Shown here one piece after another: positions 59,463 through 64,000 of a DNA stretch of 64,000 bases. The position numbers and the translations under genes were made by a program. The stretch comes from Nitrospirota bacterium (GTDB lineage Bacteria; Nitrospirota; UBA9217): positions 68,167-132,166 of the forward strand of contig CAVWHO010000005.1 of assembly GCA_963754875.1 (NCBI GenBank), in the 5' to 3' direction. Position 1 is the first letter of the stretch; each line of letters begins with the position of its first letter. The notes under the pieces are model-generated. The model saw only the letters and a program-made list of their open reading frames with translations. It ran no database searches and had not been told where the DNA came from.

Positions 59463-61063
59463 TCAAGATTGCGGTGATGATTTACCATTACCGAGGTCGG
59501 TAACGATCTCCCTGAACTGCTCCAACGCCGCCTCAAGGTCTTCCACGATCTCCAGTGCAATGACATCAGGATCAGGCAGGTTGTCGGAGGCTTCGAGAGA
59601 GTCGTCCTTGAGCCAGAAGATGTCGAGGCTCGCCTTGTCGCGGCTGACGAGTTCGTCATAATTATAAGACCGCCAGCGGCCTTCATTCCCTACTTCCTCG
59701 CCTTTCCGGGGAGAGGACCGAGGTGAGGGGGTAGCCTTTTCTTTCCACGTGGCCTTGCGCTGATGGCGATCTAAACTTCCCCCCTTTGGCAAGGGGGGGA
59801 TTGAGGGGGGGTTGGTTTTGGACACGTTCAAGCCGAAATAGCAGGCAAAAAACTCGTCGAGGTCTGAGCGCTGGAGGGAGCTCGTCTTGAGAGTGAAGTG
59901 CATGTTCGTGCGGAGGTCGTAGATCCAGAGCTTCTTTGTCCAAGGTGTTTCGCTTGCCGGCTTTTTGTCGAAGAACAGCACGTTCGCCTTCACACCCTGG
60001 GCGCAGAACAGGCCCGTAGGCAGGCGCAGGAGGGTATGCACGTCGCACTCGTGCAGGAGCTTTCTCCTGACCGTCTCCCCTGCCCCGCCTTCGAACAGGA
60101 CGTTATCCGGCACAACAACTGCCGCGCGGCCATTCTGTTTTAAAAGGGTCTTTACATGCTGGATGAAATTGAGCTGTTTGTTTGACGTCGTGGCCCAGAA
60201 GTCCTGGCGATCGATGATATCGGTCTCCCGGGATACTTTGCCGTTCTCGGCAACGATGGTGGTGCTGCTCTTCTTGCCGAAGGGAGGATTGGTCAGTACG
60301 ATATCGAACCGGTCACCGGGGTCGGCAGCAAGAGAATCCGAAACGATGATAGGAAGGTCCTTGTCGGTCCCGATGCTGTGGAGCATCAGGTTCATGGCGC
60401 AGAGCCGGGCCGTGCTCTGAACCAGCTCCCAGCCCTTAAAGGTGGAGCCTTTGAGTTTGCGCTTCTCATCGGCGCTCATGTTCGGGTTATGCTTTACCAC
60501 GTAATCGTGCGCAGCAAGGAGAAAGCCCCCGGTCCCGCACGCAGGATCGCAGAGGGTCTCTTTCGGCTTCGGCTGGATCACGTCAACCACGGCATGGATC
60601 AAAGGACGGGGAGTGAAGTACTGGCCAGCGCCGGACTTGGTATCCTGTGCGTTCTTCTCCAGGAGGCCTTCGTATGCGTCCCCTTTTACATCAGCGCTCA
60701 TCACCGACCAGTTTTCCTTATCGATCAGGTCGACGACAAGACGTCGTAATTTCGAAGGGTCCTGGAACTCGTTCTGGGATTTATTGAAGATCAGCCCGAG
60801 CAGACCTTTTTCATTGCCGAGACTTTCGAGCATATGGCGGTAATGATCGAAGAGATCGTCGCCGTCCTTCTTGAGTAGGGTGGGCCAGTGTACTTCGCGG
60901 GCACGGCACTCGGCTGGTTGTACGGCGCTTTCGTGCGCTCGTCGGCCATCTTGAGGAACAGCAGATGCGTAAGCTGCTCCACGTAATCGCCGTAGCTCAT
61001 CCCATCGTCTCGGAGGACGTTACAGTAGTTCCAGAGTTTTGAAACGATTGCAGCTGAGGTCAT
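59463..61063 (-). CDS. hsdM: Type I restriction-modification methyltransferase subunit M (one-base deletion ~60890; possibly decaying)
   Basis: IVSKLWNYCNVLRDDG, GAGQYFTPR, DPACGTGGFL, NPPF (N6-adenine MTase), LRLPTG, SLDIFWLKD. Confidence 0.9.
59694..59811 (-). repeat. Two GC-rich palindromic repeat units inserted in frame in hsdM
   Basis: CCCCCCCTCAATCCCCCCCTTGCCAAAGGGGGGAAG (59776-59811) and CCCCCTCACCTCGGTCCTCTCCCCGGAAAGGCGAGGAA (59694-59731). Confidence 0.75.
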
Positions 61064-61103
61064 AAACTGATAATGCCTTTCCTGCCATCTCTAACCACGA
61101 ATC

Positions 61104-61361
61104 TTATCTATTCTGTAGCTTCGGTTGTTTACGTGCAGTCATGAAGTCAGCTGAGAACTTGTCCAGGTGATTTATCAGCTCGTCCCAGGGAGCTGTTCGG
61201 AAAGATTCGTCCTCTACAAACAGACCACAAGTCTCACAGTGATGAGTTACAATTAAATGCCGGTCCCTATTCTTGCACCCCGCACCGCGCCTCGTCTCCT
61301 GCGTCGGTCGCATGTTCCGCACGCTCATGCAATGCGGACAGTATCCAACAAACATACTCAT
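61104..61361 (-). CDS. Zinc-ribbon protein with VapB-like C-terminal tail
   Basis: CPHC...CETC then PWDELINHLDKFSADFMTARKQPKLQNR. Confidence 0.55.
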   Translation of the reverse strand: MSMFVGYCPHCMSVRNMRPTQETRRGAGCKNRDRHLIVTHHCETCGLFVEDESFRTAPWDELINHLDKFSADFMTARKQPKLQNR

Positions 61362-61378
61362 GCAGGCCGATGTCTCTG

Positions 61379-61783
61379 TTACAGAAGCTCGACCGACTTT
61401 ATGCTTTTGACCTTTTCGTAAAGCTTTCTGTCTGCGGTTACGAATGTACATTTGAGCCTCCTGCTGAGCTCAACATAAGCAGCGTCATAGCCTGTTATTT
61501 TGTATTTCCTGGATAAGACAAGACCGCCTTGAAATTCTTCCAATCCAAGATCAAACCGTTCGAGGGAGAAATCCCAGAGAAGCGAAAATACCTCTGCAAT
61601 GGCCGCTTCGGTAAGCCGTGTCTTTGTTGCCAATACATTGCCGATCTCATAGAATAGCAGGTCGGGCACCGCTACGATCTCATGCCCGGCGACATGAGCG
61701 TCCTTCAAACGGGCCGCGCGTTCTCCACCATCTTCGTCATCGAATATCCACTTGAGGACCACTGAGGCGTCCAGGACGATCAT
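61379..61783 (-). CDS. PIN-domain (VapC) toxin
   Basis: MIVLDASVVLKW, EIGN, YDAAYV, VTAD. Confidence 0.92.
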   Translation of the reverse strand: MIVLDASVVLKWIFDDEDGGERAARLKDAHVAGHEIVAVPDLLFYEIGNVLATKTRLTEAAIAEVFSLLWDFSLERFDLGLEEFQGGLVLSRKYKITGYDAAYVELSRRLKCTFVTADRKLYEKVKSIKSVELL

Positions 61784-62058
61784 CGACGCTCCCGTGCTTC
61801 CCGGATAGCTTTTACGACGTCCAGGTGAGCGGTCTCTTTCCGGTGTTCCTTCTTCCAGGCATCCATTCGGCTGGACAGCTCCTTGAGCTTCCTCCCCCGG
61901 TCGCCTTTCAGCACCTTGTCCTGATACTCGTCCGCGGAAATGAGGACCGCGAGGGGCTTGTTTGCCCGGGTGATCGTCACGGGTTCATGCCCTTCCGCAA
62001 CGGAATTGAGCACGCTGCCCAGTTTCTTGCGCAGATCGAGCGCGGTTACGGTTTTCAT
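61780..62058 (-). CDS. Phd/YefM family antitoxin
   Basis: MKTVTALDLRKKLGSVL...PVTITRANKPLAVLIS; ATGA overlap with toxin; TTGACA-17-TATATT promoter and GGAGG RBS upstream. Confidence 0.9.
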   Translation of the reverse strand: MKTVTALDLRKKLGSVLNSVAEGHEPVTITRANKPLAVLISADEYQDKVLKGDRGRKLKELSSRMDAWKKEHRKETAHLDVVKAIREARERR

Positions 62059-62169
62059 GCAAAACCTCCTTGCCTTCATGAGCTATAATATAGACTATCA
62101 TAGCAGGTATGTCAACAGCAGTTTAACGGCTTAAGCGGCTTAAGTGTCACCCATTTAAAGGGCACCGTC

Positions 62170-62544
62170 AAGCGGAAAAAGCTATCTTGTGGCGAGAAAC
62201 GAATGTTTCTCGCCGAGCCTTTTCGTTATCTTCATCATTACCATTGCCGCAGTTTCATTCGGTTTCGGTGTCAGTCTTCACTGCACCAGTCACCCATCGG
62301 GATTAAGGTCATTGGTGAAGCTTTTTATCCATGACCCTTTCCGCCTTATGGCGGACCAGAAAATCTTCGGTTCCATGCCGTGTCCAGGAGTATGTACAAG
62401 TCTTATGGTTGTTAACCAGCCCCATGATGGCTCGCGGCATGGGCAGTAAAGATGCTGATAACGCTATAAAAGGGTGGGACGGATTACCAATCAGGTCTCG
62501 TGGTTTTTTGCCAACCCTAAGCAAGGTTCACCGTCCCAGCCAGC
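62170..62544 (-). ncRNA. Predicted bridge/seek RNA with two target loops and one donor loop
   Basis: Stems GGGACGG/CCGTCCC (62476-62537), CCATGCCG/CGGCATGG (62373-62442), CTTCAC/GTGAAG (62276-62320), terminal hairpin 62191-62214; loops contain matches to the flank and the element end. Confidence 0.72.
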
Positions 62545-63573
62545 CTATGAACTTTGTGTAAAGATTTTCTCCGGCATAAAGGGAACTCCATCTCGCATGA
62601 TGTAATACGCTGCCCGCGCCAGTTTGTGGGCCAGGGCTTGATGGGCTATCATGGCGTTGGTCTTTTGCATCTTGCGCTGGTAATATGCCCGGGCTTCCGG
62701 ATAATAGCGTCGGGCGATCTCGGCAGCTTCGGAAAAGGCCCATGCCAGGTACTTGTTGCCGCTTTTCTTGTTCCCTTTGCCCTTTTTCTTATCGTTGCTG
62801 ATCCATTTGGTTGAAACTTTCCGGCAGTAGGAGCAATAGTTGCCGACTTGCGAGAAGCGGCTGATCGGGCCGGTCTCCAGCATGATGGTAAGTCCCAACG
62901 TTTTACCCACTCCCTGCAACGTGAGGAGATTTTTGTATGGTTCGCGCAGCTCCATTCTGTCTTCTATGATGCTCTCAACCGTTTTGATCTTGAGCGTCAG
63001 AAAATCTATGGACTCCTTGCTGATCTTGCCGGCCAAGGCCAGGTCCTCGTTCTGCTCAAGAAACGGCGCAACGCGATCCGTTTTCAATGCCTTGACGTCG
63101 TTCGTCTTGAGCCGGAACCCGTTGTTACGGCAAATGATGTTCTGCAAACTGATGATGAGCGAGGTCCTGAGCTTTACGAGATGGCTTCGTTTGCGTAACA
63201 AGTCACGGACTGGTCGATCTTCTTTCGGGTAAATGTAGCCTTCGGGAAGGATCCCGAGCCGCAGCATCTCGGCCAGCCAGAAGGCATCATGCTGATCGTC
63301 TGAATACTTGAGCCCCTTATATTGCTTGATCTCCGTAGGGTTTGCGAGATGCACCTTGTATCCTTCTGCCATGAGTGCATCCACCAACCAATACCAGTTG
63401 TACGTGGACTCGATGACGATGCCGATAATCGTATCCTTGTATGGTGCGAGAGCGGAAAGAATTTGTTCCGGATCATTGGGAAGCTTCTTTTTGAACACCC
63501 GTTTACCAGTTTCATCGATGATCGCCAGATAACTGTTGCTTGAATGTAGATCAATTCCTGTGTACAATCTCAT
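62545..63573 (-). CDS. IS110-family DEDD recombinase/transposase
   Basis: YTGIDLHS, VIESTYNWYW, SDDQHDAFWLA, GVG..LG..I..E.G...RF, GNKYL.WAF.EAA, LAHKLAR..Y. Confidence 0.95.
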   Translation of the reverse strand: MRLYTGIDLHSSNSYLAIIDETGKRVFKKKLPNDPEQILSALAPYKDTIIGIVIESTYNWYWLVDALMAEGYKVHLANPTEIKQYKGLKYSDDQHDAFWLAEMLRLGILPEGYIYPKEDRPVRDLLRKRSHLVKLRTSLIISLQNIICRNNGFRLKTNDVKALKTDRVAPFLEQNEDLALAGKISKESIDFLTLKIKTVESIIEDRMELREPYKNLLTLQGVGKTLGLTIMLETGPISRFSQVGNYCSYCRKVSTKWISNDKKKGKGNKKSGNKYLAWAFSEAAEIARRYYPEARAYYQRKMQKTNAMIAHQALAHKLARAAYYIMRDGVPFMPEKIFTQSS

Positions 63574-63689
63574 AAAGCACCTCCTGGGATAAGATTGGTC
63601 TCTTCTCCCAAGAGCATATCAGAGCTTAACCACTCTGGTATGCTCTGGAGGTGCCCTTTATATGGTTATACAGGTCTTTTATTTTGGTG

Positions 63690-64000
63690 TCACGACTTCC
63701 CTCGCACCAGATTGCTGATCGTTGAATAATGCATATTCAAATGAGCAGCTATCAGCTGCTGGGTGTAGCCGTATTTCTGCACGGCATCAATAATCCTCTT
63801 GTCTCGTTTCTTCTTGTCCAGGATCACCTGTTTCGGAAATATCTTATCGAGAGACGGTCTGTTCACATAGCGATGACTCTTGGGTATTTCAGGAATGTTC
63901 TGGTGTTTCTTGATATGGGAGATGAGTCCCTCCACAAAATCGTCTTCACCCAGAATAGACTCTCCTTTTACCTCTCTCCAGATAGACTCCTTGCCGATCC
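63690..64000 (-). CDS. C-terminus of a REP-associated/IS200-like tyrosine transposase (runs off window end)
   Basis: IGKESIWREVKGESILGEDDFV...YGYTQQLIAAHLNMHYSTISN (C-terminal HTH typical of this RAYT-like family); catalytic HUH part lies outside the window. Confidence 0.65.
   Translation of the reverse strand, partial: IGKESIWREVKGESILGEDDFVEGLISHIKKHQNIPEIPKSHRYVNRPSLDKIFPKQVILDKKKRDKRIIDAVQKYGYTQQLIAAHLNMHYSTISNLVRGKS

Follow-up and report, generated by a model that had tools for sequence, protein, structure and literature searches.

Comparison of a mobile element in the window (the whole 64,000-nt stretch of Nitrospirota DNA that was analysed) with its homologs indicates that its predicted bridge RNA has three loops, a layout that is real and clade-wide. 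Two loops are of target type (loops 1 and 2) and the third is a donor loop, and the second target-type loop appears to shadow the target of the first and to name no second target. This three-loop layout is likely, though not certainly, new in print.

An IS110-family element with IS1111-type anatomy

The gene at 62545..63573 (minus strand) encodes an intact 342-aa DEDD recombinase of the IS110 family, which scored 175 bits against NF033542 (cut-off 140) and contains the domains PF01548 and PF02371. Its D8/E55/D93/D96 and S259 fall at positions which we take to be catalytic in IS621 and ISCro4. They were aligned with the acidic and serine positions of those proteins (PDB 8wt6 and 9t56; residue numbers hand-counted). 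As expected of the IS110 family, the recombinase combines a DEDD RuvC-like domain with a Transposase_20 domain carrying the catalytic serine, insertion is conservative, at a short core common to target and donor and without target duplication, and the structured non-coding end has loops that match and covary with target and donor. The core was TG at both junctions of three full copies, and empty AGACCTGACCC sites are present in the same genome.

Three features of the IS1111 group were likewise found. The sub-terminal inverted repeats, of 7-17 bp in the group, are 16 bp long here with 15 complementary; the long non-coding region lies downstream of the transposase gene (about 395 nt, against about 97 nt upstream); and in loops 1 and 2 the top-strand match stands 5′ of the bottom-strand match, an order set out for the group in the available text of PMC11187229. 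On these features we describe the element as of IS1111-type anatomy; the nearest named group is ISGsu4-like. The -35-like and -10-like hexamers at the two ends meet at 18-nt spacing only in the circle junction, where they would form a putative promoter by analogy with the elements described in the available text of PMC11208160.

Three loops in the 3′ non-coding end

The 395-nt 3′ end was found to fold better than chance (MFE -134.4 kcal/mol, z -4.88, 0/100 shuffles as good), and the MFE fold includes the closing stems of loop 1 and loop 2. All three loops have a common pattern of CC-N, guide and TGG, and the positions of their parts are listed in Table 1. A first-pass annotation, made from the letters of the window, had described an IS110-family element of IS1111-type anatomy with a 3′ bridge-RNA-like region containing two target-type loops and a donor loop, and this description was borne out; the strings that it quoted are all in place (loop 1 at 62476-62537, loop 2 at 62373-62442, AGACCTG at 63671-63677, ATGGGTG at 62291-62297 and 62148-62154). 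It had also ascribed the same layout to both target loops, but the two differ: after the core TG, loop 1 has AT and TGG and loop 2 a G-poor spacer. A G-poor spacer of 10-13 nt follows the core TG of loop 2 in 108/123 elements. The 5′ half-guide of loop 2 had been misread as ACCCCATG and is correctly read as GCCCCATGA.

An Rfam scan of 60000-64000 returned only one chance snoRNA match (E 0.35). Among RNA runs, no run contained more than 0.10 of the sequence words. Four metatranscriptome runs (82% likeness) gave short assembled contigs of relatives over the non-coding end and the gene, although such contigs cannot reveal transcription, strand or ends.

Table 1. Features of the element and its putative bridge RNA (positions in the window)
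Feature	Position	Strand	Basis
Left target flank, core TG at 63671-63672	63671..63680	-	Same AGACCTG in each of the three full copies
Left end (right-donor half) with -10-like TATAAC; begins TA here, AT in most homologs	63665..63670	-	Sequence, homologs
Left sub-terminal inverted repeat	63650..63665	-	Sequence
Hairpin in short 5′ non-coding end, upstream of ribosome-binding site	63612..63645	-	Sequence; similar ones by eye in homologs
Loop 1, putative primary target-binding loop	62475..62538	-	Stem covariation; tracks insertion sites
Loop 1 closing stem	62531-62538/62475-62482	-	Covariation
Loop 1 predicted right-target guide	62514-62524	-	Sequence
Loop 1 predicted left-target guide and core	62492-62500	-	Sequence
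Loop 1 handshake-like AT	62490-62491	-	AT in 122/127 copies
Loop 2, second target-type loop	62373..62442	-	Sequence, covariation, tree tests
Loop 2 closing stem	62435-62442/62373-62380	-	Covariation
Loop 2 predicted right-target guide	62419-62427	-	Sequence
Loop 2 predicted left-target guide and core	62397-62405	-	Sequence
Loop 2 G-poor spacer where loop 1 has handshake	62387-62396	-	Sequence
Putative donor-binding multi-branch loop, outer limits approximate	62266..62372	-	Sequence; inner hairpin covaries
Donor loop, predicted right-donor guide (half-guide unnamed in first-pass annotation)	62359-62367	-	Sequence
Donor loop, predicted left-donor guide and core	62291-62298	-	Sequence
Donor loop, handshake-like AC, first two right-target bases	62289-62290	-	Equality in 80/90 sites
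3′ hairpin of non-coding end, possible RNA end	62191..62215	-	Folding, sequence
-35-like TTGACG	62166..62171	-	Sequence
Right sub-terminal inverted repeat	62151..62166	-	Sequence; 15/16 complementary to left repeat
Right core TG (62148-62149) and right target flank	62138..62149	-	Sequence, copies

Conservation and covariation in homologs

Homologs were collected from the phylum's genomes (a match in 30 of 301), GTDB contigs (70 loci), metagenome contigs (at least 120 stretches) and 38 further genome stretches. The 210 anchor matches reduced to 194 distinct contexts and to 171 distinct 3′ ends with at least 195 nt upstream, some of these being remnants or chance pattern matches. Loops were identified by alignment-anchored parsing; right flanks less than 200 nt from the anchor were blanked, and those of L155 and L185 were removed as mis-parsed. 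Among the 171 ends, loop 1 was parsed in 127, loop 2 in 150 and both in 124. Two target-type loops with a donor loop, in place of the one target and one donor loop of a canonical bridge RNA, were parsed in 120 of the 132 ends directly attached to a transposase C-terminus; the remaining 12 comprised seven with both loops by eye, three damaged ends and two single-loop chimeras (L106 and L115). Each chimera joins the 5′ part of loop 1 to the 3′ part of loop 2, neither has a recognisable right end, and one has a broken frame.

The two-loop layout was visible by eye in relatives at 31-57% protein identity and on replicons of cultured Paraburkholderia, Pseudoalteromonas and Alteromonas, of which two carry an ISGsu4 family annotation. 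Among named relatives, the nearest (93-96% protein identity) come from Nitrospirota metagenome-assembled genomes. In a search of proteins alone, 7999 of the best 8000 scored candidates had E<=1e-40, and the donor-loop pattern gave 0 matches in viral contigs.

Conservation and covariation of loop 2 in homologs had been named in the first-pass annotation as a check on its proposal, and both were observed. In a set of 81 non-redundant ends (90% identity filter), both closing stems emerged from an unguided RNAalifold prediction, and two-sided changes were found in 8/8 pairs of the loop-1 stem and in 9/13 of the loop-2 helix. Over the whole named structure 93.6% of cells pair, against 24-41% in slid controls, and two-sided changes occur in 23/35 pairs, against 13.8 +/- 1.7 in shuffles (0/500 as high) and 10-15 pairs in the slid controls, over which the structure is favoured by having been taken from the window's own sequence. 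The inner hairpin of the donor loop (helix 6) covaries as well.

Loop 1 and the choice of insertion site

Comparison of insertion sites shows loop 1 to be the loop that reads the site and decides where the element lands. At 56 sites with two flanks, loop 1 fitted better in 47 and loop 2 in 2, with 7 ties (48, 3 and 5, respectively, with G-U pairs). When five positions per side were compared at 58 sites, the target base at positions where the loops differ was that of loop 1 at 128, that of loop 2 at 22 and neither's at 20. Among the 32 of these sites at which the loops differ at three or more of the 10 core-proximal positions, loop 1 fitted better in 28, with one tie, and loop 2 in three (25/5/2 for loop 1, tie and loop 2 with G-U pairs counted), sites that are not mutually independent. 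Mean core-proximal pairing over the 58 sites, G-U included, was 9.33/10 for loop 1 and 8.0/10 for loop 2. The three sites that favour loop 2 (L012, L044 and L051) mean that it may be used occasionally.

The same genome holds three full copies (on C5, C15 and C20), a 5′ remnant (C18) and a diverged 3′-end remnant (C7). AGACCTG forms the left junction of the full copies and of the 5′ remnant (4/4), while the right flanks of the full copies start ACAC, ACCT and ACCC, the C7 remnant likewise having ACCC. The first-pass annotation had proposed that loop 2 addresses a second variant of the target and that insertion sites might split into loop-1 and loop-2 classes. No such split was observed, 28/32 discriminating sites fitting loop 1, and the second variant found no support: all full copies and the 5′ remnant are at AGACCTG, and elements with AGACC in loop 1 and AGACT in loop 2 sit at AGACC in 6/6 sites. 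Moreover, loop 2 of the C20 copy reads AGACCTG, which makes the C/T difference between the loops, on which that proposal drew, a polymorphism within one genome. Four of the seven empty loop-2-like sites in the genome are copies of one sequence; this four-copy match to loop 2 falls within the coding sequence of another multi-copy IS, is intact in 4/4 and was treated as chance.

At L012, and at L049 and L051, one flank is an exact match to loop 1 and the other fits loop 2 better, as if half-guides of different loops had been combined or loop 1 had drifted after insertion.

Loop 2 follows the target of loop 1

Over 31 target classes, loop 2 matched its own target at 5.81/8 positions, against 3.85 +/- 0.21 when permuted, and loop 1 at 7.29, with relatedness uncontrolled. 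A tree was therefore built for relatedness from the scaffold alignment with the guides masked (124 ends, 325 columns); the tests on it are simple parsimony on a short alignment, and the registers of the right halves were set by a rule chosen post hoc with the data already seen. In the left halves, 53/63 changes of loop 2 from a mismatch ended at the base of loop 1 (off-position control 82/289), and changes on the same branch reached the same base in 29/33 (control 22/87). The right halves gave 34/46 changes to the base of loop 1, against 83/231 in the control. Loop 1 changed 140 times on the tree and loop 2 91 times, with 62 and 28 solo departures from the matched state; since loop 1 changes and leaves the match more often, loop 2 lags.

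Identity between the loops on the left is 0.81 at -1, 0.65 at -5 and 0.38 at -6; on the right, from the core outward, it is 0.98, 0.86 and 0.80 and then at most 0.50. A similarity that fades past 4-5 bases from the core and does not extend to the adjacent AT makes selection on pairing more likely than gene conversion. By comparison of homologs, loop 2 is a conserved structure whose guides follow the site of loop 1 over the 3-5 core-adjacent bases, change more slowly and are without the handshake. The lineage of L062-L065 and L142 has a loop 2 that fits no more than 4-5 of 10 target positions, yet its elements sit at loop-1 sites, which argues that pairing by loop 2 is not strictly required.

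Handshake dinucleotides

The two bases after the core are AT in 122/127 copies of loop 1 as compared with 6/150 copies of loop 2. In most elements the AT of loop 1 is the start of the donor's right half, and L259, whose left end starts AA, has AA in loop 1. The donor-loop dinucleotide equals the first two right-target bases in 80/90 sites. The post-core dinucleotides of loop 1 and of the donor loop thus match their partner DNA, as an insertion-favouring handshake would. The subgroup of the present element reverses the general rule, its left end TA mismatching the AT of loop 1 in 8/8 and matching the TA of loop 2 in 7/8 closely related elements. Loop 2 has canonical spacing in three distant relatives (L023, L026 and L262), and in L023 and L026 it was seen by eye to keep AT.

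The dinucleotide of loop 2 equalled the first two right-target bases in 1/105 sites, with 1.7 expected by permutation, so no enrichment was found and a handshake of loop 2 tuned to the target was rejected. A second candidate, prompted by TG-TA in this subgroup, was that loop 2 reads the left junction, where left target meets right donor; it was rejected because the post-core bases are variable and G-poor in 129 distinct tails and the 5′ half follows the right target. Aim at the element's own inverted repeat fits L048 only, and by eye no covariation was seen elsewhere.

Possible roles of loop 2

Loop 2 probably serves the same site as loop 1. In IS621, according to the available text of PMC13626964, handshake pairing drives insertion and lowers excision by a factor of about 2000, and a target loop reading target-derived flanks is required for excision; the circles of ISEc11 likewise require target flanks, as stated in the accessible part of PMC11187229. 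Since the handshake suppresses excision and excision reads target-derived flanks, loop 2 suggests itself as a flank reader for exit. The reading we favour, at close to an even chance, is that loop 1 is the insertion guide and loop 2 an accessory target loop for the same site, most plausibly aiding excision; that excision is its very job, by analogy with IS621, we would put slightly short of an even bet. Comparison shows that loop 1 chooses the site and that the last loop reads the element's own joined ends; in the favoured scheme, the 3′ RNA with its three recombinase-binding loops would guide the bridge recombinase. Loop 2 would be used on sites already chosen by loop 1; free of the handshake that locks the inserted state, it would partner the adjacent donor loop and read target-derived flanks during excision or copy-out. 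Loop 1 could then drift to a new target while loop 2 still fitted the old flanks. Against excision, a loop tuned to it should carry a target-matching handshake, so that the equality in 1/105 sites is at best neutral. The lineage with a poorly matched loop 2, the distant relatives with AT in loop 2, and the TA left end of this element's subgroup, which agrees with loop 2 and not with loop 1, also count against it.

More broadly, there may be a division of labour, which we put forward tentatively and with some doubt, between a handshake-bearing target loop for entry and a slower-evolving second loop that serves exit or, now and then, entry at the previous target. If so, an element could change its target without stranding itself, and one recombinase would have two separately reprogrammable target loops on one RNA; were loop 2 separately programmable, it could serve as a natural scaffold for controlling direction or for editing at two sites. 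The second target loop bears on how elements excise against an insertion-favouring handshake and on retargeting when exit needs a guide matching the old flanks.

Alternatively, loop 2 could guide insertion redundantly and more weakly into the same family of targets, which would widen mismatch tolerance and back up a mutated loop 1. Its average of 8.0 paired positions out of 10 is in keeping with this, as are the three sites that fit it better (L012, with 10 against 8 paired, L044 and L051) and the separate functioning of split target and donor loops of IS622 as modules (available text of 10.1101/2025.05.14.653916). However, loop 2 lacks the handshake that drives insertion, and those three sites are explained equally well by drift of loop 1 after insertion or by the RNA of a sister element acting in trans, the L044 genome holding several element types; we consider a redundant guide unlikely.

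True multiplexing, in which loop 2 would by itself guide insertion to a second target or variant of the target, is improbable, and its direct claim is unsupported by natural insertion sites. Differences at three or more of the 10 positions in 32/58 sites, reaching 6/10, would allow it, and with few sites sampled per element rare loop-2 insertions could escape; but 28 of those 32 sites fit loop 1, the AGACC/AGACT elements are at AGACC in all six cases, and loop 2 converges on loop 1 without divergence. In the present genome seven loop-2-like sites are empty and elements occupy three loop-1 sites, with six further loop-1 motif matches unoccupied, numbers too small for a test. Just as improbably, loop 2 might be a structural or processing module that owes its resemblance to loop 1 solely to gene conversion taking place now and then between the two neighbouring paralogs. 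Recombination between the loops does occur (chimeras L106 and L115) and some lineages tolerate a poorly matched loop 2, but the likeness is confined to core-proximal bases, and homogenisation has reached neither the adjacent AT nor the apical hairpin, though both halves move in parallel.

Relation to known systems

Published bridge RNAs are described with one target and one donor loop, whereas here a second target loop has been retained across a large clade, in relatives with as little as about 31% protein identity. The element resembles IS621 and ISCro4, as far as the available text of PMC11208160 and PMC13626964 describes them, in its recombinase of DEDD and Tnp domains, bipartite guides for both strands, 2-nt core, target and donor loops, handshake-like dinucleotides and circle-junction promoter (here predicted). 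It differs from them in having three loops instead of two, the RNA at the 3′ end, a reversed order of half-guides and a multi-branch donor loop, and the protein match to IS621 is weak (E 7.5e-08). With the IS1111-family seekRNA elements ISEc11, ISKpn4, ISPa11 and ISPst6 (available portion of PMC11187229) it has in common a long 3′ non-coding region, long sub-terminal inverted repeats and a top-strand match 5′ of the bottom-strand match. Their long RNAs, in the same portion, are of about 145-170 nt with one target-matching unit, in contrast to about 270 nt here, made up of two target loops and a donor loop; none of the four was among the plasmid matches listed (25 of 27) at E<1e-30.

The ISGsu4/ISGsu5/ISShfr7/ISShwo5 group (ISfinder) comes nearest by name: plasmid relatives at 48% identity are annotated as 'ISGsu4 family transposase' and contain both loops. 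The group is a row in the tree table of PMC11208160 and in the source data of PMC11187229, in the parts available. We found no description of an RNA for it in the accessible literature, in which one unrelated paper names ISGsu4, and ISGsu4 itself was compared via annotation only.

TIGR stem-loop arrays share tandem dual-spacer units, short conserved flanking motifs and binding by a related RNA-binding domain, and a bridge RNA has been likened to two fused TIGR units (both in the available text of PMC12045711); as described there, however, the arrays consist of many units whose spacers are unrelated, and they lack a donor loop, whereas here two target units converge on one site. An IS110 locus with several predicted donor-binding loops (10.64898/2026.08.14.744561, available text) also has more than one loop of a kind per element, but these are donor loops at a single locus, as against a clade-wide second target loop. 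Bridge RNA structures deviating from that of IS621 are reported in the accessible part of 10.64898/2026.10.21.760802. A description of two target-binding loops in one bridge RNA was not found in the literature covered, which excludes subscription papers and patents, and none is given in the available text of 10.1101/2024.01.24.577089, PMC13604230, 10.1101/2025.10.25.684509 or PMC12288879.

Further observations on targets, termini and neighbours

The target in this genome is a short dispersed intergenic repeat, a TGTCAA-like motif followed after 4-7 nt by AGACCTGAC (63671-63692; also on C6, C7, C14 and C20), with six empty matches. It resembles REP-like elements and may be of that kind. In the window it stands directly after an HTH-ending ORF (63690-63998) that is truncated by the contig end. 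Recurrent remnants were seen in which an empty target-like repeat runs into the 3′ portion of the non-coding end; their right junction is intact and they lack a transposase (C7 at ~59920-60260; L126, L132, L226, L229, L242 and L246).

In distant relatives at 31-40% identity (L021, L023, L024, L026 and L262) both loops end in TAAC (CTAAC in 4/5), and insertion is at GTTA(G/T) sites. We take these sites to resemble integron attC cores. The right-target guide of loop 1 reaches 0, 1 or 2 bases into the core depending on the lineage, at a constant length of 11 nt. In L048, L174 and L204, loop 1 is a match to the linker that separates loops 1 and 2 in related elements, and that linker is where L048 and L204 have inserted, one bridge-RNA element being aimed at the guide RNA of another.

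A tandem duplication of the right terminus (15 nt, from inverted repeat to core) is seen in L048, L059, L064, L142, L150, L185 and L214 and may stem from donor-donor or one-ended recombination. The right junctions of L062, L063, L064, L065 and L059 carry TA and their left junctions TG or CG, which suggests that the core can be mismatched and that each junction may inherit the core of a different parent.

Directly downstream of the element is a gene pair of a Phd-family antitoxin and a PIN-domain protein (61379-62079, minus strand), and at 59463-61063 (minus strand) lies a type I restriction-modification methyltransferase-like gene, apparently split into overlapping frames (59463-60833 and 60791-61063). 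Elsewhere in the genome, C15, C16 (two), C17 and C21 carry a different multi-copy IS, about 1.8 kb long, whose ORF is of DDE type.
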